NCBI GenBank assembly: GCA_965649205.1
Contig: CBFGJV010000022.1
Span: 1-35,633, forward strand
Source: a candidate division WOR-3 bacterium
Lineage (GTDB): Bacteria > Hydrothermota > Tepidihabitantia > Tepidihabitantales > Tepidihabitantaceae
DNA length: 35,633 nt
Direction: 5' to 3'
The position numbers and the translations under genes were made by a program. The notes beneath the pieces were generated by a model. It had not been told where the DNA came from. It made no database searches and was given only the letters and a program-made list of their open reading frames with translations. Positions 399 to 33,700 of this stretch are shown in pieces (positions within the stretch are counted from its first letter, which is position 1; every line of letters begins with the position of its first letter).

Positions 399-470
399 GA
401 GTGACAGGTGACAGGCGACGAGTGACAGGTGACAGGCGACAGGGATAGGGAAGGGGGTGACAGGTGATAC
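394..470 (+). repeat. Degenerate 7-bp tandem repeat tract (GTGACAG-type)
   Basis: GATACGA GTGACAG GTGACAG GCGACGA GTGACAG GTGACAG GCGACAG GGATAGG GAAGGGG GTGACAG GTGATAC, all in 7-bp register. Confidence 0.85.
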
Positions 471-502
471 GATACGGGTACCAGACAGAAAGGAGGAACA
501 CG

Positions 503-2755: not shown

Positions 2756-2790
2756 TGTGGTAGCTTGTCACTTATTACCTGTGAGGAGAT

Positions 2791-3042
2791 ATGGTTGTCG
2801 TTGTGAGTTACGACATCGTTAGCGACCGACGCCGGGTCCGGGTCTGCAACAAGCTGAAGGACTATGGCCGACGCGTGCAGTACAGCGTGTTCGAATGCAA
2901 TCTGGACGAACGCAGGCTGGCCGAGCTTGCGGCCGAACTCTCTGTTCTGCTCAACGTAGGGCAGGACAGCATTCGGTTCTACCGGCTCTGCGAACGGTGC
3001 GCCGCTAGGGTTGAAGTCATAGGCCATCCTGCCAGTCCTTGA
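2791..3042 (+). CDS. cas2: CRISPR-associated endoribonuclease Cas2
   Basis: VVSYDI..RRR.RV...L..YG.RVQYSVFEC and DSIRFYRLC..C motifs; 83 aa; SD GAGGAG. Confidence 0.96.
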   Translation: MVVVVSYDIVSDRRRVRVCNKLKDYGRRVQYSVFECNLDERRLAELAAELSVLLNVGQDSIRFYRLCERCAARVEVIGHPASP

Positions 3043-5119: not shown

Positions 5120-7804
5120 CTACTTTAGCACGATGGCTTTCTGGGCGAATATGCCGTCCTGGGTGATGAGCTGGAGCAGATAGATGCCGTTTGTCAAACC
5201 CGTGCCGTCCAAGTCGAAGCTAATCTGTTCGGCCAGTCTGGCCGGTCGTGACTGGGTTGCGACTATTCTACCGTCCATAGTGACAGTACGTAGTTCCACT
5301 TGCCCGGTGACCGGGGAGATGAAACTCACCCGGGAGTGGTGAGTGAAGGGATTGGGCGATATTTTGAGGACGTAGGGTAGACGGTTGAGCAGAGGAGGGG
5401 TTTCGGCGACTCCGGGTATGCGTTCGCCAAACCAGGCGAAGATGCGGCGAATGAGGGTCCATTTCTGCAGATAGCGGTTTGTATGGTCTATGGCTTCAAA
5501 GGGCACGGAGAAGTAGACAAGTCGGTAAGAGCCTTCGTAGCGGATGACTGAGTAAACCGTGGTGTCGCCATAGTCCTTGAAAAAGGCGCAGCCAATACCG
5601 CCATTGACAGCCCGTACGCCGTCAAGCGAAGAGCCGTTGTTCTGGCCGCCGCCACCACCTACAACCATTGTGTCGCCCCGGGTGATGGGGTCTGCGGGGA
5701 AACCGGGCAGATAGAGTTTGCCGGTGGATCCAGTGACCAGTTCGGCGCGCAAGTAGTTGGAGAGAAAGGGGTGGCCGGAAAGATTCTGGGCTATGTTCTT
5801 GCCGGAAATAATGAGGTTGCCGCCGTTGTCCAGATAGCCGGTCAGACTGGTTATCTCAGCGGCGGTAAGGGTGGTGAGGGAATCGTCGCCCGTGAACCAG
5901 ATGACAATCGGATAATGTTTGAGTGTGTCGGTTGAAGGCGCTCCCAGAGTCTGCACGTCAAAGCGATGGTAGAGAATACCGGAAGAGTCCAGGGCCGCAG
6001 TGTACCAGCGTTCTATGTTCGTGCCCAAATCGTCGTCCACCAGTAGAACGCGAGATTCCCCAGATAGAGTGGTGAAGAAGGTATCAGGATACGCCGGGTC
6101 AGGCTGGGCATTGACGGTAAGGTAGAAGAGAAGTTTCTGGGGTGCGTTGTCCGCCGGAATCTCGATGACAAAGGAGTCGGCTGAGCAGTCCCGGGTAGAG
6201 CCGCTGGGTATATGGGGGAAGGTGGCGGTGGCTTTGTGAATTCTTACCCTGGAGTTGGCGCTGGCGGTGAGCGTGGCGGTGACGTTGCCGGCATCGCGCA
6301 TATTGGGTTTGTTGCTGTAGCTGACAATGAGACCTACGATTTCGCCCGGGTCAGGTCGGCCATTGCCGTTGCCCGAAATGTCGTTGAAGCGCCAGCCAGA
6401 CAGACGCAGGTCACAATAAAAATGAGGCAGGATGATGTTGGCCATTGATACCCGGCCAGCTCCCAGTTTGCCCTGGCGGTAGAGGGGGTCGGGCATAGTG
6501 TCGCAGGTGGCGTGCATCAGAGCGGTGCAGGCTACATTGGTGAGTGACGGGTCGAATGATTTCATCCAGCAGGCGACAGCCGCAGCTGCCGGACAGGACA
6601 TGGAAGTTCCGTCCATTGAGCCGTAGTAGCCGGAAGAACGGTTGTAGGTGGCGAGAATGCCTGCACCTGGAGCGGTGACATCCACCCAGGGACCGTAGTT
6701 GGAAAAGCTGGCGCGGACATCAGAGGAGGTGGAGGCGGCGACATTTTCCACGCCCGGGTTGCAGGCGGGCCAGCGCTGGGCTTCCTGGCCGTCGTTACCG
6801 GCGGAGCCGTAGAGGACGCAGCCACTGTTCCAGGCATAGAGGCAGGCATCAGCCAGAGAAGAGGAGCGGTTGCCACCAAAGCTCATGGATATGGCCCAGA
6901 CTCCGGCCGGGACCGCGTGATAGATGGCGGCTACAGCACAGTTGATGTAGATGCCGCCGCCGAATCCGGCGCGTACGGCAAAGGAACGGGTGTTCCAGGT
7001 ATAACCGGCCACGCCAATGCCGTTGTTGGTGACCGCGTTTATATTGCCCCAGCAATGAGTGCCGTGGTCATCACCGTAGTCGGGCAGCGGGTCGGGCTCG
7101 CCTGATACATAATCAAAACCGATGACATCGTCATTGTAGCCGTTGGCATCCTGGTCAATGTCGTCTAGGTCTCCCAAGGGCGGAGGAGCGGGGTCAAATT
7201 GGCCGTTGCCGTTGATGTCCTCAGGGCGATTAATCCAGAGGTTGGCGGAAATATCCGGGTGCAGCCAGTCGGTGCCGGTGTCGATTACCAGATTCAGAAC
7301 CGCAGTGTCGCCTTTGGCCACGCCCCAGGCAAAGGGTGCTCCTACCTTGGCCAGATGCCATTGCGCGGAATACATGGAGTCGTTGGGCTTGGCGTCTACT
7401 TCATAGCGCAGGTTTGGTTCAGCAAACTCCACGAGTCCGGTGGCTTCATATGCTCGGCAGGCTTCGTAGACGTCGCATGCGGGGTCAAACTGTATTATGT
7501 ATTGCAGGTCACAACCGAGCTCCAGGGCTCTGGAGTCAGGATAGGGGTGGCGATACAGTTTGGTGATGTCGTCCACTTTGTATCTGCGGTTCAGCTGGTC
7601 CAGTTCAGGCACACCGAACAGCACGGTCCCGTCTGTTTCCTGAACCGAAACTCTGCCCCGCAGTGCAGACTTGAGTTCCAGGATGAGTTGACCGGCTACA
7701 TACTGGTCGTTGTTTGCCGCGGTCAAGACTGGCCGGGAAAGGTCGGGCCAGGCCAGAGACAGGGTAAAAAGGACAAGGGACATAGATATGAGTTTGGATT
7801 TCAT
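5120..7804 (-). CDS. Secreted S8 (subtilisin-like) serine protease with T9SS-type C-terminal domain
   Basis: Signal peptide MKSKLISMSLVLFTLSLA. Catalytic D (VIDTG), H (DHGTHC), oxyanion N (SAGN), S (GTSMSCP). C-terminal ISPNPF...GIYLLQL...K tail. Start set at ATG 7804 after SD AAAGGAG (894 aa). Confidence 0.92.
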   Translation of the reverse strand: MKSKLISMSLVLFTLSLAWPDLSRPVLTAANNDQYVAGQLILELKSALRGRVSVQETDGTVLFGVPELDQLNRRYKVDDITKLYRHPYPDSRALELGCDLQYIIQFDPACDVYEACRAYEATGLVEFAEPNLRYEVDAKPNDSMYSAQWHLAKVGAPFAWGVAKGDTAVLNLVIDTGTDWLHPDISANLWINRPEDINGNGQFDPAPPPLGDLDDIDQDANGYNDDVIGFDYVSGEPDPLPDYGDDHGTHCWGNINAVTNNGIGVAGYTWNTRSFAVRAGFGGGIYINCAVAAIYHAVPAGVWAISMSFGGNRSSSLADACLYAWNSGCVLYGSAGNDGQEAQRWPACNPGVENVAASTSSDVRASFSNYGPWVDVTAPGAGILATYNRSSGYYGSMDGTSMSCPAAAAVACWMKSFDPSLTNVACTALMHATCDTMPDPLYRQGKLGAGRVSMANIILPHFYCDLRLSGWRFNDISGNGNGRPDPGEIVGLIVSYSNKPNMRDAGNVTATLTASANSRVRIHKATATFPHIPSGSTRDCSADSFVIEIPADNAPQKLLFYLTVNAQPDPAYPDTFFTTLSGESRVLLVDDDLGTNIERWYTAALDSSGILYHRFDVQTLGAPSTDTLKHYPIVIWFTGDDSLTTLTAAEITSLTGYLDNGGNLIISGKNIAQNLSGHPFLSNYLRAELVTGSTGKLYLPGFPADPITRGDTMVVGGGGGQNNGSSLDGVRAVNGGIGCAFFKDYGDTTVYSVIRYEGSYRLVYFSVPFEAIDHTNRYLQKWTLIRRIFAWFGERIPGVAETPPLLNRLPYVLKISPNPFTHHSRVSFISPVTGQVELRTVTMDGRIVATQSRPARLAEQISFDLDGTGLTNGIYLLQLITQDGIFAQKAIVLK

Positions 7805-7855
7805 TAGGAAGTTCTCCTTTGCAGGCTGGTTGGATAGCCGCATAGTAGTAGTAAT

Positions 7856-10540
7856 TTACCTGACTACGGCAATCTTCTGGGCGAAGACGCCTTCGGGGGT
7901 AACCAGTTGTACAAGATAACATCCTGCAGGCAGGGAGGTTCGGTTCAGGGAGAATCTGACCTCCTGGCCCAGGGTGACGTCCCGGGTATTTGTGGAATGG
8001 ACCCGTCCGTCGAGGTCACAGATGCGCAGTTCGGCTGTGCCGGTTATGGGCGAGATGAAGCTGACGGTGGCATTTCTGGACAGGGGGTTGGGAGCAATTT
8101 CCAGTACATAGGGACGCAGGAAAGGCATGGGTGCAGGTTCGGCAGCGCCGACCAGGGGTTCGTCAAACCAGCGGAAGATGCGTTTTAAGAGGGTCCAGCG
8201 CTGCAGGTAGCGACTGGAGTGGTTTATGGCTTCGAAGGGAACAGAGAAATACACCAGACGATAAGTTCCCTGGTAGCGAATGACCGAGTAAACCGTAGGG
8301 TCGCCGTAGTCTTTGAAGAAGGCGCACCCGGTGCCGCCGTTTATGGCTTTTACACCGTCAAGAGAGGAACCGTTGTTAGCTCCTCCGCCGCCTCCAGCCA
8401 CCATGGTGTCGCCCTGAGTTATGGGGTCGCCCGGAATGCCGGGCAGATAGAGTTTGCCGGTGGAGCCGGTGACCAGTTCGGCGCGCAAGTAGTCAGAGAG
8501 GAACCAGTGAGAAGACAAGTTCTGGGCTATGTTCTTGCCGGAGATAATGAGTTTGCCGCCGTTGTCCAGGTAGTTCACCAGGCTGACTATGTCGTTCGTG
8601 GTGAGGGTGGTGAGAGAGTCGTCGCCGGTGAACCAGATGACTACCGGGTAATGTCTGAGCGTGTCGGCCGAGGGCGAACCCAGATTGCGGACATTGTAGG
8701 TATGGTAGACGATGCCGTTGGAGTCACAAGCGGAGGTGTACCACTTTTCGTAGTCCTTGTCCAGGTCGTCGTCCACCAGGAGTACCCGCGGTTCTCCGGC
8801 CAGAGCAGAGAAGCTGGTGTCCGGATACGCCGCGTGGGGCGTGGCGGTTACAGTGAGGAAGAAACGTACATTCTGCGGAGGAGCGTCAGATCTTACAGAG
8901 ACGACGAAGGAATCAGCGGAGCAATTGCCGGAAGAGCCGGCGGGAATCGGAGGGAAGGTGGCGGTGCTTTTGGTAATCGTGACCCAGGGGCTGGTGGTGG
9001 CAAGATTGGCGGAGATGTTGGAAGCGTTGCGGTAGCCGGCAGTGTTGCTATAGGTTACGATGAGCGCCACAGTCTCGCCGGGGTCAGGTCGGCCATTACG
9101 GTTGCCAGAGGCGTCGTTGAAACGCCAATTGGTAAGCCGCAGGTCGCAGTAGTATTGCTTGAGAACCAGGTTGGCAAGGGATACCCGGCCGGCACCCAGT
9201 TTGCCTTGGCGATAGAGCGGGTCGGGCATAGTGTCGCAGGCGGCATGGATGCGGGCGGTGCAGGCTACATTGGTGAGCGAGGGGTCAAGGCTTTTCAACC
9301 AGCAGGCCACACCCGCGGCCAGGGGACAGGCCATCGAGGTTCCGTCCATAGAGGAATAGGAACCGCTGCTGCGAGAGACGGTGGAATAGATGCCCACTCC
9401 TGGCGCGGTAACGTCCACCCAGGTGCCGTAGTTGGACCAGGAAGCTTTGACGTCGCTGTTGTTGGAAGCGGCTACGTTTTCCACGCCCGCATAGCAGGCA
9501 GGATAGCGCATGTTTTCCAGTCCTTCGTTGCCGGCTGAGCCGAACAACACCAGACCGGCATTCCAAGCTGCCAGGCAGGCATCGCGCATAGGAGCGTAAA
9601 CAGAAGAGCCGCCGAAGCTCATAGAGATGGACCAGATGCGTTCGTTGGTGGCGTATTGGATAGCGCTGGTAGCCTGAGACAGGTATATGGAGCCGCCGTA
9701 TCCGGCCCGGCAGGCAATAGAGCGGGTATTCCAGGTGGTGCCGGCTACACCGGTGGCGTTGTTGGTTACAGCGTTGGTGATGCCCCAGCAATGGGTGCCG
9801 TGGTCATCACCCGTGTTGGGCGCGGGGTTCGGGTCACCGGAGATGAAGTCCCAGCCGATAACGTCGTCCCGATAACCGTTGCCGTCCTGGTCAATGTTGT
9901 CCAAGTCACCGCTAGGAGGAGGAAAGGGGTCAAAGCGGCCGTTGTTGTTGATGTCTTCAGCCGCCTTTATGCGCAGGTTGGCTTCTATATCCGGATGCTG
10001 CCAGTCCAGGCCGTCGTCAATTACTGTGTTCACTACGCTGGCGCTGCCTTTGGCTATCTTCCAGGCAAAGGGAGCGCCCAGTTTAGCCAGATGCCACTGG
10101 TTGACATATCCCGGGTCATTGGGAATCTCGTCCAGCTGCAAGACGGCGTTGGGACAGGCGTAGTCCACTTCTTCCAGCCGGGCGTACATACTGCAAGCTT
10201 CATACACATCAAACTCTGGTCGGAATTGCACCGAGTACTGCAGGTCGCAGCCCAGTTCTACCAAGGCGGGATGAGGAGAAGGATGAGGGGTGAGGGGAGT
10301 GATGTCGTCCACCCCCAGTCGGGTGCTCAATTCGTCCAAGGCCGGGACGCCGAAAAAGGCCAAGCCGTCCTGATTGGACAGTTGTACGCGGCCGCGCAGA
10401 TGCGGTTTCAGTTCTATAATTACCTGTCCGGCCACATAACGTTCACCGTCTTTTCCCGTCAGGACCGGTCGTGTGAGGTCGGGCCAGGCCAGGCTGAGCG
10501 CGGTGAGCAAGGTTAGAACTGAGAGAATCCTGTTATTCAT
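7856..10540 (-). CDS. Secreted S8 serine protease, tandem paralogue of 5120-7804, with T9SS-type C-terminal domain
   Basis: VIDDG, DHGTHC, SAGN, GTSMACP; signal peptide; IAPNP...GCYLVQL tail; SD GGAGG; 894 aa. Confidence 0.92.
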   Translation of the reverse strand: MNNRILSVLTLLTALSLAWPDLTRPVLTGKDGERYVAGQVIIELKPHLRGRVQLSNQDGLAFFGVPALDELSTRLGVDDITPLTPHPSPHPALVELGCDLQYSVQFRPEFDVYEACSMYARLEEVDYACPNAVLQLDEIPNDPGYVNQWHLAKLGAPFAWKIAKGSASVVNTVIDDGLDWQHPDIEANLRIKAAEDINNNGRFDPFPPPSGDLDNIDQDGNGYRDDVIGWDFISGDPNPAPNTGDDHGTHCWGITNAVTNNATGVAGTTWNTRSIACRAGYGGSIYLSQATSAIQYATNERIWSISMSFGGSSVYAPMRDACLAAWNAGLVLFGSAGNEGLENMRYPACYAGVENVAASNNSDVKASWSNYGTWVDVTAPGVGIYSTVSRSSGSYSSMDGTSMACPLAAGVACWLKSLDPSLTNVACTARIHAACDTMPDPLYRQGKLGAGRVSLANLVLKQYYCDLRLTNWRFNDASGNRNGRPDPGETVALIVTYSNTAGYRNASNISANLATTSPWVTITKSTATFPPIPAGSSGNCSADSFVVSVRSDAPPQNVRFFLTVTATPHAAYPDTSFSALAGEPRVLLVDDDLDKDYEKWYTSACDSNGIVYHTYNVRNLGSPSADTLRHYPVVIWFTGDDSLTTLTTNDIVSLVNYLDNGGKLIISGKNIAQNLSSHWFLSDYLRAELVTGSTGKLYLPGIPGDPITQGDTMVAGGGGGANNGSSLDGVKAINGGTGCAFFKDYGDPTVYSVIRYQGTYRLVYFSVPFEAINHSSRYLQRWTLLKRIFRWFDEPLVGAAEPAPMPFLRPYVLEIAPNPLSRNATVSFISPITGTAELRICDLDGRVHSTNTRDVTLGQEVRFSLNRTSLPAGCYLVQLVTPEGVFAQKIAVVR

Positions 10541-15725: not shown

Positions 15726-16853
15726 TTACCATATTCCCGGAATTCTTGTCTGACAATAGCGGCAGCGACCCTTCTGCAGGTTGTTTTCGGTCACGGTGTA
15801 GCCCTGGCGGCGAATAAGCAGTTTCTTGCAGCCCGGACAATAGGTGTTTTCCAGCTGATGGCCGAAGACGTTTCCTATGTACACGAACTTCAATCCCTGA
15901 GACTTCGCCAGTGCGGCTGCGGTTTCTAGCGTCTTCACCGGCGTAGGCGGAGTGTTCTTCAGCTTGTAGTTGGGGGTAAAACGCGTGAAGTGGACGGGTA
16001 TGGTGTCACCCAGACTGTCCCGGATCCAGGCGCACATCTTTTTTATGTCCGCGGTGTCGTCGTTGAGGGCCGGGACCACCAGATTTACCAGTTCTAGGTG
16101 CGTGCGGCTGCGGGCTACCTGCTTGCAGGCCGCCAGCACCGGTTCCAAAGTGGAGTTGCACACGTTGCGGTAAAATGCGGGGGTGAAACCCTTGAGGTCA
16201 ATTTTGATGGCATCCACCAGCGAACACAGCTGAGCTAGGGGGGCGGGGTTTATGTATGCTCCGGTTACCACCGCAGTGCGAATGCCGTTTTTGCGGGCCA
16301 GGCGGGCGATGTCTGCCATATACTCGTAAAACACGACCGGCTCGGAAAAGGTGAAACAGATGGTAGGCGTCTTTTCCCGGACGGACAGGGCGACCACGCT
16401 TTCCGGCGGCATATCGGAAAAGGGAAGGTCTTCTACAGAAGACTGGGAGATTTCCCAGTTCTGGCAGTACTTGCACATCTGGTTGCACCCGGCTGTGGCC
16501 AGAACGATACGGCTGGTACCGGGCAGGAAGTGAAAGAAGGGCGCTTTCTCAATCGGCTCCTTGCCCAGCGCGCAGGGTCGGGCATATACCACTGAATACA
16601 GCGTGCCGTCTTTATTCTCCCGCGTCCGACACATACCCCGCTGACCCGGAGCAATGGTGCAGTAACGCGGACACAGCTCGCACCGCACGAGTTTGCGCTC
16701 CAGCTTTGAGTAGAACTCGGCTTCGCGCACCAGCGCCAGCCGTTTTCCGGCCGGGCCGGTTCCGAGCAGGAAAGCAGCTACCAGTGCCCAGAGGGCGGTG
16801 CGGAGATAGCGGAAAAAGGCGGAAGGAGCAGGGCAGCGAGACAGAGGCAGCAC
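15726..16853 (-). CDS. amrS: AmmeMemoRadiSam-system radical SAM enzyme
   Basis: CELCPRYC...G.C..REN, PIEKAPFFHF.PG, radical SAM motif CNQMCKYCQNWEISQ, FSEP, HFTRFTPNY, YIGNV, TYCPGC. Exact start uncertain. Confidence 0.85.
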   Translation of the reverse strand: MLPLSRCPAPSAFFRYLRTALWALVAAFLLGTGPAGKRLALVREAEFYSKLERKLVRCELCPRYCTIAPGQRGMCRTRENKDGTLYSVVYARPCALGKEPIEKAPFFHFLPGTSRIVLATAGCNQMCKYCQNWEISQSSVEDLPFSDMPPESVVALSVREKTPTICFTFSEPVVFYEYMADIARLARKNGIRTAVVTGAYINPAPLAQLCSLVDAIKIDLKGFTPAFYRNVCNSTLEPVLAACKQVARSRTHLELVNLVVPALNDDTADIKKMCAWIRDSLGDTIPVHFTRFTPNYKLKNTPPTPVKTLETAAALAKSQGLKFVYIGNVFGHQLENTYCPGCKKLLIRRQGYTVTENNLQKGRCRYCQTRIPGIW

Positions 16854-16856
16854 TTT

Positions 16857-17303
16857 CTAAAAGGCGAAGTGACCGATGAGCATACCCAACCCTACGCTGA
16901 CGAGGAAGAACCCTCCCAGACCGAGACCGGTCAACCACTTGGCCCGACAAGGCGCGGCCAGGATTCTTCCGTAGTCGATGAACACTTCCACCTGGGTGCC
17001 TGGTTTTATGTCCAGCTGAAAGGTGCCGGCGTCGATTGCCGCCAGCGACCAGACAGAGGATAGTTTCTGCCCCAGCCGGCCGGAACGGAAACGAGCATAC
17101 AGCACATCCAGGCTGTCGTTGGAAACGATAGTGAGATTGTAGGAACCGGGCTCCACGGCATACGCAGTTATGGGCGTACGGCCGATGTAGTCGCCGCCCA
17201 GCCAGATGGAGAGGCCGGGCAGACTGGAATTCACGGACACATAGCCGGAGTCGACCGGCGCTTGCAAGAGAACGGTCAGAAGAATTATACTGGTAGTCGA
17301 CAT
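16857..17303 (-). CDS. PEGA-domain membrane-anchored protein
   Basis: GYVSVNSSLPGLSIWLGGDYIGRTP...VEPGSYNLTI (PEGA-like); C-terminal TM helix. Confidence 0.7.
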   Translation of the reverse strand: MSTTSIILLTVLLQAPVDSGYVSVNSSLPGLSIWLGGDYIGRTPITAYAVEPGSYNLTIVSNDSLDVLYARFRSGRLGQKLSSVWSLAAIDAGTFQLDIKPGTQVEVFIDYGRILAAPCRAKWLTGLGLGGFFLVSVGLGMLIGHFAF

Positions 17304-17309
17304 CGATAG

Positions 17310-17337
17310 ACGATAACTGATTAGCGGTATAAGTCAA
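17310..17337 (-). promoter_or_regulatory. Putative sigma70 promoter giving a leaderless transcript
   Basis: Minus strand: TTGACT, 16 nt, TATCGT, 6 nt, ATG at 17303; no SD. Confidence 0.45.
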
Positions 17338-17383
17338 CCATTGTCATTTGGCTCTGCCGCTCTGTTCTGATGCTTCCAGAGGT

Positions 17384-17418
17384 TTGACAAGGTGTATTTT
17401 TTCGCTCCATAATACACC
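17384..17418 (+). promoter_or_regulatory. Putative sigma70 promoter overlapped by an inverted-repeat operator
   Basis: TTGACA (17384-17389), 18 nt, CATAAT (17408-17413); inverted repeat GGTGTATT (17391-17398) / AATACACC (17411-17418). Confidence 0.55.
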
Positions 17419-17495
17419 GAAGAGAGAAGCCTATGGAAAGGCCGGTAAGGGCCGGTTCAGCTGTCCTTTTCGGGCAAAAGAGGAGGGGGCAGTCT

Positions 17496-18848
17496 GTGCA
17501 TGCAAGAATCGGACTGGCGCTTCTGGTAGTGATGGCAGCAGGCAGTGCCCAGCCTATGGCCGGAACATATACTATTGACAATTCTGGAGGGGGAGATTTC
17601 GGAAGTTTCTCTCACGCTCTTGCCGTGCTTCTGGCGCGCGGAATGAACGGCGCAGTGGTGTTTGAAGCCTTGCAGGGAATTTACAACGATGGTCTTCTGG
17701 ATTTGCGCGGGCTGAGCACGAACGGAAAGACTTTGACTTTTCGCTCCCGGCCCGGTCACAGTGTAATCATTGACGGCAGCGGCTCGGCGGCCATTTTTCT
17801 GGCAGACGGCAATGAGGGCGCTACGCACAATGTGAAGATAGAAGGTCTCACACTCACCAATTCCTCACCCGGCGGCTGGCCCGTCTATGCCGTGAATAGG
17901 CTAAACGGTTGGAGAGTTTCCAACTGTACGTTTCTGACTTCTACCGGTCCCTGGTTCAACGGCTCCTATGATTCTGTTGTGGACTGTCACATCCGGCTGA
18001 GCGGTAATACCGGGATATACCTGTACAGCAGTTCCAATTGCTGGATAGTAAACAATTTTGTTTCCGGTGCGCGGATGATGTGCGTCTACTTCAATACCGC
18101 GTCGGGCAACACCATCGCCAACAACACTTTCATTACCGATTCAACCGCTGCCGGCGCTGTGGGTATGTATCAGAATCAGAGCAGCAACACCTTTTACAAC
18201 AACATCGTGGTGTCATCTTCCTACTGCCTGTACACCAGTTCCCAGCCGGTCAATTCTGATTACAACTGCTGGTATCGTCATTCCGGGGACTCCCGCCTGT
18301 TTTACCTCAGCAATGTGGGGGCAATGGGACTTTTGAGCTGGCGCAGCCGGTCGGGAAACAGAATAGATATGAACAGTATGGAAGCAGACCCGCTGGTTGT
18401 GGACAGGATTTCTGACCTGCATCTGCAGGCCGAATCGCCCTGCATTGATGCGGGCAGCGCCATCAGCGGTATTGCTCGAGATATAGATGGACAGATGCGG
18501 CCCCACGGAGCCGCCTGCGACATTGGCGCAGACGAGTACTATCCCGTGGGACTGGCAGGCGAGGCGGGATGTCGGTTGTCAGACAGCAGATTGCGCATCG
18601 CGCCCAACCCGGCGCGGTACAGAGCAACTGTCTGGTTTTCGTCGGATTTCTCCGCTGGCGGATTTGCTCCGGCGGCTGTTGGTCTTTACGATGCCTGCGG
18701 TCGCTGCGTGCGTGTTTTTTCCGCCTGCCTTGCGGACGAGGCAGGGTATAAGGTTGACCTGGATTTGAGAGGACTGGCGGCTGGCACTTATTTTGTGCAG
18801 GCTACCGTCGGTCGTTGCCGGATCGGGGACAAACTGCTGGTGAGGTAG
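17496..18848 (+). CDS. Secreted right-handed parallel beta-helix protein with T9SS-type C-terminal domain
   Basis: SD AGGAGG then GTG 17496; signal peptide; GTYTID..GGGDF; Asn-rich beta-helix repeats (IVNNF, IANNTF, FYNNI, SDYNC); DLHL...SPCIDAG...DIGADE motif; IAPNP...GTYFV tail. Confidence 0.8.
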   Translation: MHARIGLALLVVMAAGSAQPMAGTYTIDNSGGGDFGSFSHALAVLLARGMNGAVVFEALQGIYNDGLLDLRGLSTNGKTLTFRSRPGHSVIIDGSGSAAIFLADGNEGATHNVKIEGLTLTNSSPGGWPVYAVNRLNGWRVSNCTFLTSTGPWFNGSYDSVVDCHIRLSGNTGIYLYSSSNCWIVNNFVSGARMMCVYFNTASGNTIANNTFITDSTAAGAVGMYQNQSSNTFYNNIVVSSSYCLYTSSQPVNSDYNCWYRHSGDSRLFYLSNVGAMGLLSWRSRSGNRIDMNSMEADPLVVDRISDLHLQAESPCIDAGSAISGIARDIDGQMRPHGAACDIGADEYYPVGLAGEAGCRLSDSRLRIAPNPARYRATVWFSSDFSAGGFAPAAVGLYDACGRCVRVFSACLADEAGYKVDLDLRGLAAGTYFVQATVGRCRIGDKLLVR

Positions 18849-18851
18849 AAT

Positions 18852-20060
18852 ATGACAGTTTTCTGGCTGTTATGTCTGTTTACGGTAGTGCCGCGCTTTC
18901 AGGGACCTTTTCCGGTGCTCTGCGCCGGCACGCCCATTGATGTGGGCACCCACAGCATTCCCGATGTGGCGGACTGGGACGGTGACGGCAGAAAAGACCT
19001 GATAGTGGGACAGTTTGATTCCGGATTCGTCAGATGCTATCTGAACACCGGCTCAGACTCCAGCCCGGTATTCGAGAGTTTTTTCTTCATCACCGACATA
19101 TCGGGTACCCGTATCAAACTGCCGTTTGGTTGATGTATCGGTTCTGTTCCACAGGTTGTGGACTGGAATTCAGACGGCATAAGAGACCTTCTGTGTGGCG
19201 ACCGGGGCGGGTATTTGAATGTGTTTATCCAGACCGACTCCGGACTTGTGTCTTATCTGCGCCTGCGCAAGCAGAATGGGGATACGATTGATGTGGGCAC
19301 TAATTCCTGCCCCACCGTGATAGATTGGAACTCCGACGGCCGCAAGGATGTGGTGATTTCCCGCGAGAACGCCATTACGTTATTGTTTCTGAATATCGGC
19401 TCGGATACCTGGCCGGTGTTTCAGGATTCCATTATTGTGAGCGTGGGCGGCAGCTGGCTGGTTTTCAGCCGGGGACAGCCGCGCGCCTATGATTTGGATC
19501 AGGATGGCCGCCAAGACCTTATCTACGGCGAAATGTCCGGCTACATTCACTTCCTGCGCAATCTGGGACCGGACTCCTTTGCCACTCTGGCCAGACCAGA
19601 GACTCTGCGCACTGTGACAGGTAGCAGAATAATGCCGCCCGGCTCGCCAGCGCGGGAATCCAAGGTAGGCGTCTGCGACTGGAATAACGACGGCACGCCC
19701 GACCTTTTGGTGGGCGGCTATTCCGGTCTTATTGACCTTTATCTGGGTGTGCCGCAAGTGGGTCTGGCTGAAGACGCCGGATACAGGTTTTCCGAGGTAA
19801 GTTTCCGCATCCGGCCTAATCCGGCGCGGGACAAAGCCCAAGTCTGGTTTTCTCCTTTTGCCAGAGAAAACGGCTGTTGTCTGCGTCTGTATAACTCTGC
19901 AGGCCGCTGCGTGCGGTCGGTTTCGTTCAGCTCGGCATCCGCCGGGCCTGAAAACAGTTCAGTTCTGCTCGATTTGCGCGGTCTGCCCGCAGGCGTGTAT
20001 CTGGCATATCTAAAAAAGCCAGGCCGGAAGTCTGCGCAGAAGTTGGTGGTAGAAGAATAA
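18852..20060 (+). CDS. FG-GAP/VCBS-repeat secreted protein with in-frame TGA at codon 94 (putative selenocysteine) and T9SS-type tail
   Basis: Track ORFs 18852-19133 and 19158-20060 are in the same frame, separated only by TGA (19131-19133) and CIGSVPQV. DWDGDGRKDL / DWNSDG repeats continue across the junction. IRPNP...GVYLAYL tail. 402 aa if read through. Confidence 0.75.
19140..19170 (+). promoter_or_regulatory. Putative bacterial SECIS hairpin
   Basis: TCCACA (19148-19153) pairs with TGTGGA (19157-19162) around a GGT loop that begins 20 nt after the UGA. Bulged U at 19147. Lower stem GGTTCTG / C(T)GGAATT. Confidence 0.6.
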
Positions 20061-20062
20061 AT

Positions 20063-20095
20063 CCGCGCTTCCGCTTGAAGGAGTGCGCGGCTTTT
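20063..20095 (+). terminator. Putative intrinsic terminator
   Basis: CCGCGC-TTCC...GGAG-T-GCGCGG hairpin followed by CTTTT, just after the FG-GAP stop. Confidence 0.5.
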
Positions 20096-20099
20096 GCTC

Positions 20100-20128
20100 T
20101 TGACCACAGAAGCGCAGAGGGCCATAAT
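20100..20128 (+). promoter_or_regulatory. Putative sigma70 promoter giving a leaderless transcript
   Basis: TTGACC, 17 nt, CATAAT, 6 nt, in-frame GTG at 20135; no SD. Confidence 0.55.
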
Positions 20129-20134
20129 CACAAT

Positions 20135-22180
20135 GTGAAAGCACCGGGCCGGCGCGTGGACTGGCGGCAGTGGCTGGTATTCGCAGGGGTAGCCCTGCTC
20201 AGTGTTCTGCTCTATCTGCCCACGCGGAAATACGATTTTGTCTGGGACGACGGGCCGCAGATAAGAGACAATGAACACCTGGCGCGGCTGAGTCCGGTCC
20301 GCGTGCTTTTTTCCGGGTATGTTCTTGACCCCAAGATAGCGCTGCAGACCGGTACTTTCACCTACTACCGGCCTTTGCCCATTCTCAGCTTTCAACTGGA
20401 AAAGAAGCTGTACGGCAACAACCCAGTCGGGTACCATTTCCACAACGTTCTTTTGCACACAGTAGCGGTGCTGCTGGTATGTGCGGTGCTTTTTACCCTT
20501 TTCCGGTCAATCTGGTGGGCGGGTGCCGGCGGACTTCTCTTTGCTCTGCATCCGGCTTTGCACAGCGTGGTGACATTTGTGTCCAACCGTACCTATCTTT
20601 TGGCCGGTGTATTCCTGCTGCTGGCACTCTTGGCGCTTTTGCGGGGACAGAAAAGAAGGCAGACAACTCGCAGAAAACCGTCCGGCTGGTGGCCGTTGCT
20701 CTATGGTTTGGCGTTCTTTCTGGCTCTTCTGTCCTTGGAGTCCTGTCTGCTTTTCGTGCTGGCGGCACTGGCTTGGCTGCTGCTCACGCAGAAGAGCTAT
20801 GTCAGGCCGCCGGTCTGGTTTCTGGCGTCTGGGCTACCGCCGCTTGCTTATCTGGTCCTGCGTCTTTTGGTGGCGCGGGTTCCTTTTGCCGAAACTGTGA
20901 TAGGTGCGGGACTTGCCCAACCTCTGACCATATTCAACAACTTCGGTCAGCAGACATTGTCCTTTCTGGTGCCGGTAGGGTTGAAACTGGTTCATACAGA
21001 CAAAAGCATAGGCGGCCGTTTTTCCGGTTACACCCTGGTGGCTGGCTTTTTTCTGCTTCTGCCTCTGGTCTGGTATTTTGTTTATGCCCGACATCGATCG
21101 CAGGCTAGAGCTGAGACCAATAAGCTGCTTTTAGGCTTTGCCCTTGCCGTCTTCCTGCATCTGCCTTTTGCCCATATGCTGGAAAAAGGGCCTGCGGGTC
21201 GCATGCTGTATCTGGCCGGCCCGGGTATTATCATCGTTCTCTTGGTGCTGGCTAGACAGCTCAGCGTCAGGGTGCCACGCGCAGGGCCGGTTCTGGCTCT
21301 GGCGACGCCAGCTGTGGCTTTTGTGTTCTCTATTGTGACCAGACAGCAGATCGCTGCCTGGAACACAGACTTGAGCCTGTTCCGCACGATGCTTGTCCAG
21401 CAGCCTGACTACCTGCCCGCCAGTCAGAATCTCGCGTTGGCGCATATGCAGAAAGGGAACAAAGATTCGGCCTTGGTATATCTGGAACGGACCCTAGCTT
21501 TGGATTCCACCTATGCCAAAACCTATGAAGTAAGGGGTCTTCTATATGCGGCAGATGGAGACTATCAACGTGCGGTAGAAGATTTCACCCGGGCTATCAT
21601 CTACGACTCCACCTTTGTGACTGCCTACTACAATTGCGGCCTGGCTTATCTGCGGATGAACCAGCTGGAGCCGGCGCGAAAGAACTACGACCGCGCTATG
21701 CAACTGGCGCCAGATTGGGCAGATGTGTATCTGGGCCGCGGCACGGTAAGTTTACGTCAGGGGGAGACAGAAGAGGCAATAAGGTTCTATACACAGGCGC
21801 TGAAGCTCAAGCCGGAGTTTGCGGATGTCTGGGCCAATCGCGGCTGTGCGTACCTACTGCTGGGTAACCATAAGCAGGCTCTCGCCGACTGTAACGAAGC
21901 TTTGCGCCTGCAACCCGGGTCTGTGACTTTGCTGGTCAATCGGGCGATGGCGTATATGGGGGTAGGAGAATACGCACTGGCGCTGGCTGATTACGAAGAT
22001 GCATTACGCCGGGAGTCAGGGCTGGCGCAGGCACACTATGGCCGGGCCCGCTGTCTTGACCTCCTGAACCGAAGGGAAGAAGCCATAACCGCCTACGAGA
22101 AATTTCTCAGTCTGGGGACAGCTTCAGGTGCGCAGGCTGACACTGGCCGGCAAAGAATCAGAATTCTCCGCAGCAGGTAG
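20135..22180 (+). CDS. TMTC-like GT-C membrane protein with C-terminal TPR repeats
   Basis: FVWDD, YYRPL, GYHFHNVLLH and LLFALHP motifs in a multi-TM N-half; multiple TPRs (AYYNCG, VWANRG, AHYGRA). Start moved to GTG 20135 on promoter geometry. Confidence 0.8.
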   Translation: MKAPGRRVDWRQWLVFAGVALLSVLLYLPTRKYDFVWDDGPQIRDNEHLARLSPVRVLFSGYVLDPKIALQTGTFTYYRPLPILSFQLEKKLYGNNPVGYHFHNVLLHTVAVLLVCAVLFTLFRSIWWAGAGGLLFALHPALHSVVTFVSNRTYLLAGVFLLLALLALLRGQKRRQTTRRKPSGWWPLLYGLAFFLALLSLESCLLFVLAALAWLLLTQKSYVRPPVWFLASGLPPLAYLVLRLLVARVPFAETVIGAGLAQPLTIFNNFGQQTLSFLVPVGLKLVHTDKSIGGRFSGYTLVAGFFLLLPLVWYFVYARHRSQARAETNKLLLGFALAVFLHLPFAHMLEKGPAGRMLYLAGPGIIIVLLVLARQLSVRVPRAGPVLALATPAVAFVFSIVTRQQIAAWNTDLSLFRTMLVQQPDYLPASQNLALAHMQKGNKDSALVYLERTLALDSTYAKTYEVRGLLYAADGDYQRAVEDFTRAIIYDSTFVTAYYNCGLAYLRMNQLEPARKNYDRAMQLAPDWADVYLGRGTVSLRQGETEEAIRFYTQALKLKPEFADVWANRGCAYLLLGNHKQALADCNEALRLQPGSVTLLVNRAMAYMGVGEYALALADYEDALRRESGLAQAHYGRARCLDLLNRREEAITAYEKFLSLGTASGAQADTGRQRIRILRSR

Positions 22181-22254
22181 AGGACTAGCATATCTGCCTA
22201 AAAATGACAGCCAGTTCTAGTAAGCAGTCAGTATGCCTACTCTGCTTATGACCG

Positions 22255-22542
22255 GCATTCAAGGCAGTAGGCATACATTAAGGTTGAGCGCAGGGCATAA
22301 TTCCCCGCATAATGTACAGCGGACTATCCTTCCTTTATCTGTACCAGTCCTGGGTCTGGGTAGGGGACAGCTGGAGTGCTAGCCCTGGGGCTAGCCCCAA
22401 GGCTTGTGGTGCAATCTGTATAAGATGTGGCATGACATACCTTTCTGTAGCTGGTAGCTGTGTCCATCTATACCGTTGATTTACTGGTTGTTCGCTTTTC
22501 TGGGGGGCGTGCGTAATGCTGTTTATGTAGCATAGCTGGGCC
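22255..22542. repeat. Highly degenerate 12-bp-phased tract (~24 units)
   Basis: Every position 22260+12n (n=0-23) is a pyrimidine. The base 2 nt later is G in 11 of 13 core units (22351-22506) and is never C. Visible near-repeats: AGTGCTAGCCCT/GGGGCTAGCCCC, and GCATAAT at 22295 and 22307. Confidence 0.65.
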
Positions 22543-30550: not shown

Positions 30551-30756
30551 TTATATTGGTTACATAAGCGCCATGGCACGAGGCGCTTTGCCTAGCCCGA
30601 AAACCGGAGTCCGGCAAGCGCACACGGCTACAAAGCCGTTTGTTCTATGTCCGGTCTCCTGCGGGTGAACAGCGTTAAGGAATACGTGCCGGAGAGAGAG
30701 CAGGAAACACAAGCAATATGGCCTGCAGAGATAGAAAATATCAACAGGAGGTTCGG

Positions 30757-33700
30757 ATGTCGAGACAAAGTCTCGCCGCAGTCCTCATCGGTCTGTTTGC
30801 AGTTGGCCTGGTTTTCACTGTCCAGGCAGCAGTTTTTACCAGCGTACAAGACGGTTCATGGCAGGATGGCGCAACCTGGGACCAGGCTGGGGCTACCCCT
30901 GGTGCCAGTGACGACGTGGTCATAAACCACGCGGTCACTACCAGCGCCAATATCACCATAACCGGAGTTACCATCAACTCGGGCGGGAGTCTTGCCCTGG
31001 GCACCTATACCTTGACCGCAACTGGTGCTTTTGTGGTTGATGGGGCTATTACCGGTACCGGTCTCATCACTCTGAGCGGTACCGCAAATGTGGGTGGCGC
31101 CGGCACTATTGCCGGGCCTGTGTCTTTCACAGGTTCCCGCACCATTCTGGCTACCACCGCCCTTACTATCGGCGGCAAGGTCACCACTTCTGTGGCTCTG
31201 ACGATTCCGGCTGGTGCCAGCTTGACAATAGGTGGGGGCATTGATATTGCCGGCACGGTCACGATTACCAACAACGGCACAGTGGATGTGACCGGGAGCA
31301 TTGAGCGTACCAGCACCTACACACCTACTTGGACTCAGGGTAACAACTCTGTATTGAAAGTGTCCGGCAGTTTACTTTCAGCTGCAGGAACCTTGAATGC
31401 TACAGCCAACGGCAATCTGGTGGAATACAAGGGTGCGGCTCAGACGGTCAAGAGCAACAACTACTGGCATCTTACACTTTCGGGCAGCGGTACTAAGACT
31501 CTGCAGAGCGGGACGACTTCCATATCCGGCAACCTTGTACTCGCCGGCACTTGTAATACAACAACTCCCACTACGACTGGCTTGACAATCGGCGGCAACC
31601 TTGTGGTGGGCAGCGGTACTACTTTCAACATTAATTATACAAGCGCTGTTACTTTCACTGTAACCGGCACCACCACGGTTGGCGGCAACCTCGTTTTCCA
31701 GAGTACCACCGGCACCAAGATATTCGCCGGTCTGGTCACGATAGAGAATGGCGGTGTGTGGAACAATAGCATAAACAGCGCGGTCACTTTCCGCGGCGGC
31801 ATTACCAACAACGGCACTTTCACCGCGGGCACCGGCACGCACACCTTTGCTACGAACGATCAGATTCTTACCGGAACCTTTGTCATTCCCAATATCACGG
31901 TCACCGTCATAACTCTGACAAACAAAGGTTCTGTCCTCTGTGCTACGAGTCTGGGCGGAACCGGCACTTTCCTCAATGATGAAAACGCCACTCTGGAAGT
32001 GAGAATGGCCACGGTGGGTGTTACGAACCTGAACGCGGGCGCCACCGGAAATACAGTTATCTACAGTGGAACTGCGGCGCAGACCATAAAGGTACCGGTA
32101 GCGAACACTTACCATAATCTTAGAATCAGCACCAGCTCCGGTATCGCGGCCACTGCGGGTGGAGCGTTTGCCATAAACGGCAACCTTCTGGTTACGAGTG
32201 GTATCTTTGCCGACGGCGGATATACGATTACAGGAAACTCTACCGGTACTCTGCAGGTTAACGCAGGGGCGGAGATCAGGTTCGGCGCAGGCGGTGCAAC
32301 TACGACAGATTTCCCGGCTAACTTCACTTCTGACAACATCATTCTCCAGCCTGGCAGCACGGTGCACTACAACCAGACCAGCAACATGACCCTTTCCGGA
32401 GTGAAGACCACCTTCCATCATCTTACTTTCTCCGCAGCCGGGACGCGGACTTTACCAGCGAATATCACGGTCAACGGCAATCTGACTCTGAACGCCGGCA
32501 CGCTGAATGACGGCGGCTATACCCTTGAGGTTCGGGGCAACATTACGAACTCTGGCACGATAACCGGTTCCGGCTCAGGCAAGGTACTTCTTGCCAACGG
32601 CACCGCCGTGCACACCCTTTCCGGCACCGGTTCGTATCGGAACCTGGAACTGAACGACCCCCTGGGCGCGAACATGGGTGCTGCGTTTACCATCAATGGC
32701 AATCTGACCATTACTTCCGGCCAGTTTGCCACCGGCACCTATGCCATTACTGTCAATGGCGTGACTACCACAGTCGCCGGCACGACGCCCGGTATCTTCC
32801 TGGCTAACGGTGCTGTGACTGGTACCCGGGCGTTCAATGGCGGTATCGTGAACGGCGGTCAGTTCAACATTACTACGGGAACAGCGACCACCTTTAGCAC
32901 CAGCGACCTCACCAGCACTGGCGTCTGGAACAATGCGATAAACCAGCCTATCACCATCTCCGGCAATCTAAGCGTCACGGGCGGCACCTTTACTGCAGGC
33001 ACGGGTACTTACACGATGAGTGGAAACAACAAGACGATTCAAGGCACTTTGGCCATTCCTAACCTCACCATATCTGCCGGCACAGTTTATAACCTTGGTA
33101 CCCTTACCAGCACGGGTACGATTTCGCTTTCTGCTGCTGCGTCCAAACTGGTCAATAATGGCGTAATCACTGCCGCGGCGATTACAGGCGGTGCGGCCGG
33201 TTCTACCTTTGAGAATGCCCAGGACGCTACCTTGAATATCAGAGGCGCCCTTTTGGCTACCGGTACGCTGATAGCGAATGCACCGGGCAACACCATAGAA
33301 TACAACGGTACTGCGGCTCAGACGGCCAAGCTGCCAACTCCGGCAGTGTATCACAACCTGCTGGTGAACAACACCACTACCGTCACGATGGGCGGAGCGG
33401 TAACTGTGAACGGCGACCTGACGGTGAACAGCGGTACGCTGTCGGACGGAGCCTACCAGATTACCGGCACCAGCACTGGCACGCTCACTGTTGCCAACGG
33501 CGCTACTCTGCAGATTGGAGCGGGTGGAGCCACTGTTACAAGTTTCCCCACAACCTTCGGTACCATAACGCTTGGCGCCACCAGTACAGTTAATTACAAC
33601 TACACAGAAGCCGGTTCTGTATCGCACGTTCCAACTTACGGCCACTTGACCGTGACCGGTGCTTCGACTAAGACCGCAACTGGCGACATCACGGTGGTCG

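Follow-up and report, generated by a model that had tools for sequence, protein, structure and literature searches.

The question raised by this locus is whether a TGA codon that interrupts a long reading frame ends one gene or is translated as selenocysteine (Sec) within it. The window, that is the whole stretch of 35,633 nucleotides analysed here, derives from a candidate division WOR-3 bacterium, and the frame in question spans 402 codons on its forward strand (18852-20060). Its sole internal stop is the TGA at 19131-19133 (codon 94), directly followed by a TGT codon for Cys. The initial annotation had read this site as IKLPFG-U-C, and the frame bears this out: the TGA stands in the context IKLPFG-TGA-C-IGSVPQVVDWNSDG, which yields FG-U-C-IG if the codon is translated as Sec. 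We conclude that the TGA is almost certainly read as Sec, as judged from sequence comparison, and that the locus very probably constitutes one intact gene encoding an exported selenoprotein, a statement which covers Sec decoding, export and the propeller fold together. The elements at the center of this analysis are the following:

18852..20060, forward strand: read-through gene for a predicted exported selenoprotein of 402 amino acids with a five-repeat FG-GAP/VCBS propeller and a tail of the type IX secretion system (T9SS) type (Pfam/NCBIfam, AlphaFold2, purifying selection on both halves)
19131..19133, forward strand: in-frame TGA, predicted Sec94 (site shared by 24/24 inspected loci, window gene included)
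19134..19136, forward strand: Cys95, the chalcogen position common to the whole family (Cys in 111/124 non-Sec homologues, TGA in the G-U and C-U subtypes)
19158..19160, forward strand: GTG, apparently a false start of the called downstream gene of 300 amino acids, in fact Val103 and part of the 3' arm of the hairpin described below (GCG or TGC in 20/83 homologues)

Coding potential on both sides of the TGA codon

In the public annotation, the frame is represented by two proteins, a piece of 93 amino acids and a piece of 300 amino acids starting at GTG 19158, and the public proteins begin with MDWNSDG. The read-through protein contains five D-W/L-D/N-x-D-G-x-x-D repeats at residues 41, 104, 158, 214 and 276, with the TGA located in the loop preceding the second of them, and a Pfam scan assigned it to PF13517 (FG-GAP_3) with 77.6 bits against a gathering score of 26.9 (E 1e-21). 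For the C-terminal half, a 70% identical relative was found in candidate division WOR-3. Purifying selection is acting on both halves of the gene, as the proportion of nonsynonymous differences (pN) was well below that of synonymous differences (pS) on either side of the TGA in all 11 of the hand-chosen homologue pairs. TGA is used as an ordinary stop elsewhere, as had been remarked before: the cas1, cas2 and Clp genes of the window all end in TGA, which terminates 272 of the 671 open frames of at least 400 codons in the window's genome and is the commonest stop there.

Conservation of the TGA codon among homologues

The initial annotation had raised the possibility that the TGA might be unique to this assembly, and had proposed looking for a conserved TGA at codon 94 in homologues. 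The codon turned out to be present across many phyla and to be shared by about 90 genes in 58 genomes. Among 41 related genomes, one TGA was contained in 27 of 45 matches, namely in all those with E values <1e-37, including the window gene, and the remaining 18 were weak and partial. In all 24 loci inspected out of these 27 TGA-containing matches, the TGA occurred at the same site and was followed by a Cys codon. Extending the search to 272 genomes of the host phylum yielded one TGA in 93 of 102 matches, spread over 58 genomes; this figure is a tally of matches with a TGA, the position of the site having been checked in the 24 loci. The nine matches lacking a TGA were all partial: two belong to a gene in genome G151 which misses the site-bearing blade, one is an N-terminal piece close to a contig end (genome G029), and six are weak. 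The G151 locus (L121, G151:C39:1500-3300) shows an intact frame of 369 codons with four repeats and no TGA, from which the U-C-bearing blade is absent.

We also sampled the best 80 loci each from GTDB genomes and from metagenomes, with a few loci occurring in both sets. The GTDB sample contained 53 loci with U-C, 7 with x-U-x-G, 2 with C-U, 16 with Cys only and 2 with neither, and the metagenome sample 49 with U-C, 5 with x-U-x-G, none with C-U, 1 with U-x-x-C, 22 with Cys only and 3 with neither. Homologous loci were found in Fermentibacterota, Stahlbacteria, Phycisphaerae (Planctomycetota), Kuenenia, KSB1, Victivallales (Lentisphaerota), Verrucomicrobiota, Nitrospirota, Eisenbacteria and Cytophagia. 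In 83 distinct U-C genes, the stop at the site is always TGA, which follows from the definition of this class, and neither TAA nor TAG occurs there, while Cys95 and Gly97 are kept in all 83. Contigs of distant relatives align to the window chiefly at 19117-19177, which corresponds to the TGA and the hairpin downstream of it. The best-matching contig in four DNA sequencing runs represents a relative with 154 differences over 1501 letters and was not used as proof for the TGA. No RNA run was listed among the sequencing runs.

Some loci deserve separate mention. L047 comprises five and L100 three TGA-containing copies arranged in tandem, and L200 carries a U-G-S-C (UxxC) variant with the same hairpin. 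At L092 (4171-5379), a tandem paralogue adjoining a U-C copy contains E-T in place of U-C and has kept the hairpin sequence, which probably reflects a recent loss of U-C.

A predicted bacterial SECIS hairpin under selection

The TGA codon is followed by a hairpin structure:

19141..19169, forward strand: predicted bacterial selenocysteine insertion sequence (bSECIS) hairpin, with an upper stem of 19148-19153 paired to 19157-19162 and the loop GGU at 19154-19156 (frozen synonymous codons, compensatory change)

A GGU-loop hairpin 20 nucleotides downstream of the TGA had already been proposed, and it is indeed present at 19148-19162, with an upper stem of 6 base pairs and a folding energy of -8.8 kcal/mol. 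The bulged U described together with it (19147) was not recovered, since the best fold gives a 1x1 mismatch opposite C19163 and the column varies among the homologues. The part of PMC13188914 cited here defines bSECIS elements by a loop of 3-9 nucleotides with G in one of the first two places, a stem of at least 4 base pairs, a spacing of 16-37 nucleotides and a minimum free energy of at most -7.5, and the window hairpin lies within all of these limits. Applying our own version of the rule, we found it satisfied in 79 of 83 U-C genes, compared to 19-27 of 81-83 at the four sister repeats within these genes and 6-7 of 18 genes without Sec; it also passes 671 of 4088 arbitrary TGA codons in the window's genome.

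The hairpin exceeds chance because it is conserved among the homologues, and it is under selection as far as the patterns of codon usage tell. The two most frozen of 71 fourfold-degenerate columns are Val103 (GTG in 63/63) and Pro100 (only CCA or CCG, 74/74), and both codons covary as one base pair, with the combinations CCA/GTG in 61, CCG/GCG in 11 and CCG/GTG in 2 genes, the amino acid being altered in the process. The compensatory change at these two codons thus provides the covariation that had been suggested as a check on the hairpin. The remaining 9 genes contain a complementary stem whose register is displaced by one or two bases. Moreover, pS over codons 98-105 was lower than in both flanks in 11/11 pairs, and 83.5% of the cells in an alignment of 81 sequences were compatible with the stem, as compared to 25-42% with the partners slid against each other. 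No match to Rfam was obtained up to an E value of 0.5 across 17000-22500.

Selenocysteine machinery and its co-occurrence with the gene

The genome from which the window derives (G000; 2.15 Mb, 97.95% complete) contains the complete set of selA, selB, selC (tRNA-Sec) and a TGA-containing selD gene, all above curated cut-offs, which settles a further check that had been proposed. The tRNA-Sec is the sole tRNA of this genome with a TCA anticodon, and its tRNA-Trp has the anticodon CCA. The hairpin of the selD gene is similar to that of the propeller gene, with a loop AGUUG 22 nucleotides after the UGA in the former and AGGUU at 19 nucleotides in the latter. Within the phylum, selA was found in 52 of the 58 genomes carrying the gene (33 of 35 high-quality carriers), compared to 122 of all 272 genomes. 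At least one sel gene is present in 57 of the 58 carriers, including five of the six lacking selA, and the listed families of the phylum without a match to selA are also without a match to the propeller gene.

The U94-C95 site and its variants

In a gap-free alignment of 124 non-Sec homologues, position 95 is occupied by Cys in 111 and position 94 mostly by Gly, with C-C at 94-95 in a single row. Because the Cys of these proteins aligns with position 95 and the Gly with position 94, U94 adjoins the family Cys and does not replace it. The expectation of Cys homologues at codon 94 was therefore borne out in part: such homologues exist, but their Cys is aligned at 95. Members from Nitrospirota and Eisenbacteria contain U at position 95 itself, and a Sec/Cys pair at this position was observed in the sister sequences L067 (TGA) and L059 (TGT). 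The site thus occurs in the subtypes U-C, C-U, G-U, U-x-x-C and Cys only. A quick, unrooted tree of 145 rows (110 loci plus every third public protein, trait columns included) requires at least 3 changes for U-C and at least 4 for G-U/C-U on well-supported branches, and these state changes indicate that Sec was gained, moved or lost several times. The vicinal selenenyl-sulfide suggested in the initial annotation may accordingly form in the U-C and C-U subtypes, but does not apply to the whole family, as the G-U and Cys-only forms possess a single chalcogen.

For comparison, we used 1261 generic repeats from a profile search of 1.8 billion representatives, a set dominated by long generic repeat proteins. 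Cys was found at the equivalent repeat position in only 3 of them, and Arg at P-3 in 121 of the 1261, as opposed to 111-113 of the 124 Cys-only relatives. The Cys-only proteins further share Y34, R151, R207, R269 and R271 on equivalent loops (109-113 of 124). Among the U-C proteins (n = 82), R118 is present in 56, R207 in 65 and R or K271 in 75, and the window protein contains R118, R207 and K271.

Predicted propeller fold

The TGA-spanning repeats are predicted to form a single domain:

18885..19760, forward strand: residues 12-303, beta-propeller of five blades that contains five D-x-D/N-x-D-G loops (AlphaFold2, fold matches, Pfam FG-GAP_3)

The AlphaFold2 model reached a mean pLDDT of 90 and a pTM of 0.88. 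The best matches among 48,161 chains were glycosidase folds of the glycoside hydrolase (GH) families GH43, GH62 and GH159, with a top Z of 18.5 and a root mean square deviation of 3.0 over 236 residues at 5-14% identity; thioredoxin-fold, rhodanese and pyrroloquinoline quinone (PQQ) enzymes were not among the fold matches listed, which does not exclude them. Weak relatives by Foldseek and sequence comprise integrin alpha heads, CRTAC1, a fungal lectin and other propellers, integrin alpha chains and CRTAC1 being matched by sequence with E values of 1.5e-4 to 1e-3. In the model, U94-C95 is placed just ahead of the first strand of blade 2 (residues 99-103). The entry loops of FG-GAP proteins sit on the face opposite the Ca loops, and the role of the acidic loops in binding Ca2+ is known from integrins. 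One basic pocket may surround the chalcogen.

Predicted export and gene neighborhood

Both ends of the predicted protein and the adjoining DNA contain elements that bear on its export and expression:

18852..18884, forward strand: probable signal peptide, consisting of a short hydrophobic stretch at the N-terminus (about residues 1-11; hydropathy of about 2.5 over the first windows)
19815..20051, forward strand: T9SS type A sorting domain, residues 322-400 (TIGR04183, 24.9 bits against a cut-off of 23; PF18962, 27.6 against 27)
17433..18848, forward strand: beta-helix/choice-of-anchor Q protein with a similar tail (Pfam/NCBIfam), whose gene stops 3 nucleotides before the start codon
17384..17413, forward strand: sigma-70-like promoter match, 11/12, ahead of the two-gene unit (consensus match only)
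20063..20097, forward strand: hairpin resembling a terminator, located behind the stop and ending in a U-rich tail (-16.4 kcal/mol, z -1.83; not reported by a separate scan)

The prediction of an exported beta-propeller with a T9SS-type tail was supported insofar as the curated cut-offs for the tail were passed, by only narrow scores, and the genome encodes SprA and seven PorV-family genes over the cut-off. About 30 frames of this WOR-3-like genome carry a similar T9SS-type tail. The N-terminus of the window protein lacks a basic n-region; the homologues mostly show clearer signal peptides, which end just before the same mature start. Most of them begin with a signal peptide and end with a lineage-specific tail or varied passenger domains, and some from other phyla are tail-less. 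The upstream beta-helix gene is probably co-transcribed with the propeller gene. Both genes are paired once more, as a tandem, in the genus's other genome, and the pairing is absent from the other related loci tested. A comparison of 86 loci across phyla revealed no conserved gene neighbor, and its largest cluster was made up of low-complexity shadow frames.

Proposed mechanism

To explain how the gene may be used, we propose a mechanism of four steps. In the first, SelB and the Sec-tRNA would bind the hairpin 20 nucleotides downstream and decode UGA94 as Sec, and we consider SelB-dependent insertion at this codon extremely likely. In the second, passage over the inner membrane would be directed by the N-terminal signal, after which the C-terminal tail would deliver the protein to a T9SS-like SprA/PorV system; export by the combined action of both signals appears likely, albeit deduced from sequence motifs and the encoded components. 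Since the sorting tail is encoded downstream of the UGA, secretion would be restricted to the Sec-containing form, and ribosomes terminating at the UGA would release a one-blade fragment of 93 amino acids. For Sec recoding in E. coli, an efficiency of 30-40% is stated in the cited part of PMC4513850.

In the third step, the protein would adopt a propeller fold of five blades whose acidic loops probably bind Ca, a structure predicted with high confidence, and U94-C95 would be located in the loop entering blade 2. In the fourth step, this loop would join its counterparts from the other blades in one pocket lined with basic residues, in which the selenolate or thiolate would attack a bound anion, likeliest a disulfide, a persulfide, a thiosulfate-type compound or a metalloid oxyanion. 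Cys95 would then resolve the adduct as a vicinal Se-S ring, to be reopened by an outside reductant. A Cys-Sec ring in mammalian thioredoxin reductase offers an analogy for this chemistry. Further analogies are the vicinal Cys-Cys bridge at the center of the methanol dehydrogenase propeller for the placement of the U-C pair (in the cited part of PMC13573614) and the Sec-dependent polysulfide reduction by MccSep (as covered in part of bioRxiv 10.1101/2025.11.18.688581). A function as a surface redox or sulfur-transfer enzyme is the assignment we favor, although we rate it at slightly less than even odds. Still more speculative is the broader proposal of an undescribed large family of surface selenoenzymes of anaerobic candidate phyla, five-bladed propellers with a Sec/Cys nucleophile in the basic pocket, which may act on extracellular sulfur species or metalloid oxyanions via a Se-S ring and be exported by T9SS or other lineage-specific tails, with Sec being moved in the course of evolution between two neighboring codons (U-C, C-U, G-U, U-x-x-C) under one SECIS and its insertion gating secretion; we regard this as possible, though doubtful in its entirety.

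Weighing of alternative explanations

Several observations weigh against a SelB-decoded selenoenzyme with the proposed pocket chemistry. Taken alone, the hairpin of the window is within chance compared to shuffled sequences (z -0.25 to -1.38), two of five whole-structure measures were no better than shuffles, and the stem is supported by few independent compensatory changes (4 pairs). RNAalifold predicted no pairs from all 81 sequences, which may reflect the nine sequences with a shifted stem register, and it returned a 5-pair stem from 35 hand-picked in-register sequences. Regarding the machinery, none of the four sel genes was seen in carrier G199 (76% complete), and in G173 (one contig, 90% complete), which contains the gene, selB and a Sec-type TGA-containing selD, selA and selC were not found. 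Because the carriers are kin, the enrichment of selA among them does not represent an independent test and indicates consistency only. With respect to the pocket, the L092 paralogue lost U-C yet kept the hairpin, the set of basic residues differs between the subtypes, and a reductase partner was not found in the 86 loci.

The alternative that fares best leaves the decoding untouched and holds that soft metals or metalloids (Hg, As, Cu, Cd) are bound by the U-C pair at the cell surface, the protein acting as a scavenger or detoxifier without turnover. Adjacent Cys/Sec dipeptides do occur in the MerB-like SaoL, HgcA, SaoB and MbdU (in the parts cited of PMC13188914 and 10.1101/2022.07.06.499078), and the two chalcogens stay close to each other in the U-C, C-U and U-x-x-C variants. 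However, the Cys-only and G-U forms still keep the Arg set with one chalcogen at the site, and no metal-resistance gene is a conserved neighbor in the 86 loci, which makes this function unlikely in our view. Similarly, the protein might act at the surface as an adhesin or lectin of the FG-GAP/VCBS type, without catalysis; an anionic glycan or mineral would be held in its basic pocket, and the Se-S pair would serve as a redox switch or covalent anchor to the target. Its relatives include integrin alpha heads, CRTAC1 and a fungal lectin, and tandem copies (5 in L047, 3 in L100) as well as varied passenger domains typify surface proteins; yet the scarcity of Cys at this place in generic FG-GAP-type repeats (3/1261) and the catalytic or redox role of Sec in most selenoproteins of known function (as stated in the cited part of PMC13188914) render a purely adhesive role quite improbable.

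The other alternatives concern the decoding itself. If the TGA were a true stop, the locus would represent a conserved split into an exported peptide of 93 amino acids and a protein of 300 amino acids starting at GTG 19158, as the two halves are indeed stored as separate proteins in the databases, and 77 of the 83 U-C genes offer an ATG, GTG or TTG within 20 codons after the TGA. Against such a split, the stop is never TAA or TAG, the codons between TGA and GTG keep the protein motif including the invariant Cys95 and Gly97, the GTG is replaced by GCG or TGC in 20/83, and 6/83 have no nearby start codon. In addition, the second half would carry a secretion tail without a signal peptide, and Cys homologues with an unbroken frame exist, so that we judge this explanation very unlikely. 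Equally little speaks for reading the TGA through as an amino acid other than Sec, be it by insertion of Cys or Trp or by a changed code. Such a reading would be in line with position 94 being mostly Gly in the non-Sec homologues and C-C occurring in only 1/124, but TGA is the commonest stop of the genome, its tRNA-Trp has the anticodon CCA and its only TCA tRNA is tRNA-Sec, the hairpin agrees with the bSECIS model and is similar to the one in the genome's own selD gene, and the families of the phylum without a selA match also lack this gene. A nonsense pseudogene or an assembly error, for which nothing speaks beyond the stop itself, is virtually precluded by the same TGA in about 90 genes from 58 genomes and many phyla and by purifying selection on both halves. 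Even taken together, these three explanations remain very improbable.

Further observations in the window and its genome

Outside the propeller locus, profile scans identified these features in the window:

464-3042, forward strand: reverse transcriptase-Cas1 fusion (763 amino acids), with a Cas2-like gene and a Clp ATPase of truncated appearance behind it (Pfam/NCBIfam)
5120-10540, reverse strand: two tandem S8 serine proteases with T9SS-type tails (profile matches)
15726-16853, reverse strand: AmmeMemoRadiSam system radical SAM enzyme (TIGR04337, over the cut-off)
30718-35633, forward strand: open frame of at least 1638 codons which runs off the window, with no Pfam/NCBIfam match

Because the bSECIS rule alone is unspecific, the genome-wide list of in-frame TGA codons provides leads only. 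It includes two long paralogues at G000:C6:78193 (forward strand) and G000:C13:2856 (reverse strand), which contain an in-frame TGA in G-U-G-G-C (UxxC) with similar hairpins and constitute a candidate second selenoprotein family. Further in-frame TGA candidates are located at G000:C16:18999 (forward strand) and G000:C10:41455 (reverse strand), one of them with a U-P-S-C motif resembling thioredoxin-like proteins and one with U-C before an open frame of 329 codons.

Comparison with known systems

As the initial annotation had supposed, the protein does not belong to a recognized classical selenoprotein family, at least in the catalogues and NCBIfam models checked. Table 1 of PMC13188914 lists 119 families without the propeller family and without any FG-GAP, VCBS or propeller entry, and no selenoprotein model of NCBIfam 20.0 was matched by the 1 + 16 + 23 sequences scanned. 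The terms FG-GAP, VCBS and propeller were also absent from deep-Sep (PMC12013277, text and 4 supplements), BSepDB (PMC13326102, text and 1 supplement), SelCysML (PMC13745706, text), the Haft preprint (10.1101/2022.07.06.499078, text) and the Olavius paper, and FG-GAP and propeller from the GOS paper, in which VCBS was not searched. An NHL-repeat selenoprotein was found in neither the GOS nor the Olavius paper. Literature searches for FG-GAP, VCBS or propeller selenoproteins, with subscription journals mostly outside their coverage, yielded nothing relevant among the papers listed, and those for selenoproteins combined with type IX secretion one unrelated paper only. The family is thus apparently uncatalogued, with Haft and Tolstoy 2025 (PMC12013261) covered via a review table only; it might still appear in the candidate lists that accompany Deng et al. 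2026 (Cell Rep) or in supplements on bioRxiv.

The gene shares with SelB/bSECIS-dependent genes of the E. coli fdhF type the in-frame UGA, the hairpin in the coding region with its small G-led loop 20 nucleotides on, the presence of selA, selB, selC and selD and the existence of Sec/Cys pairs. By every feature tested, it is a member of this bacterial class, with mostly Gly as the residue aligned with U94 in homologues. Unlike the catalogued families of the class, different members contain Sec at either of two adjacent positions.

With other FG-GAP/VCBS proteins (PF13517, PF01839; integrin alpha head, CRTAC1), the protein has the repeat motif and the acidic loops in common, and it differs from them by its five repeats in a five-bladed model and by the Sec/Cys site and the Arg set, which are missing in generic repeats. 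Integrin heads consist of seven blades. The best overall fold matches, the glycosidases of families GH43, GH62 and GH159 (Z 17-18.5), are five-bladed propellers with catalytic carboxylates. At 5-14% identity, they share only the fold with the window protein, whose conserved residues at the pocket position are Sec/Cys and Arg, and a Pfam scan of the window protein gave no glycosidase match. Like T9SS type A cargo proteins (TIGR04183), it contains a C-terminal sorting domain over the cut-off, with SprA and PorV encoded in the genome; relatives of the family from other phyla differ in having another kind of tail or no tail.

A vicinal chalcogen pair is shared with SaoL, SaoC, SaoB, HgcA, KCU-star and MbdU, which contain the order CU, and the one precedent in the table for the order U-C is the CopZ-family (2Fe-2S)-binding protein form 1 (GxUC); these dipeptide selenoproteins show no sequence relationship to the propeller family, their NCBIfam models being matched by none of the 1 + 16 + 23 sequences scanned, and not one of them is described there as a propeller or as T9SS cargo (Table 1 and the cited part of PMC13188914). 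The PQQ-dependent methanol dehydrogenases (XoxF/MxaF) also are exported propellers with a vicinal Cys-Cys at the central active site (as described in the cited part of PMC13573614), yet they differ in having eight blades and the PQQ cofactor, were not among the 50 fold matches listed and have no sequence link to the family. A search for pqqC gave no match in the genome, nor did its controls.

The family adds a fold and a cellular location that are missing from the bacterial selenoprotein catalogues checked, and it is common, being found, frequently with multiple copies, in 58 of the phylum's 272 genomes and also in other phyla. Its candidate catalytic site is invisible in public data because annotation splits the gene into a hypothetical protein of 93 amino acids and a T9SS protein without a signal. 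Among the relatives, the Cys-only forms are annotated as ordinary proteins and possess four Arg besides a highly conserved Cys, so that function can be tested without selenium work, while the series U-C, C-U, G-U and G-C represents a natural experiment on the gain, move and loss of Sec. As far as checked, the decoding route is a known one, and the fold, the surface location and the shifting position of Sec are new for selenoproteins.

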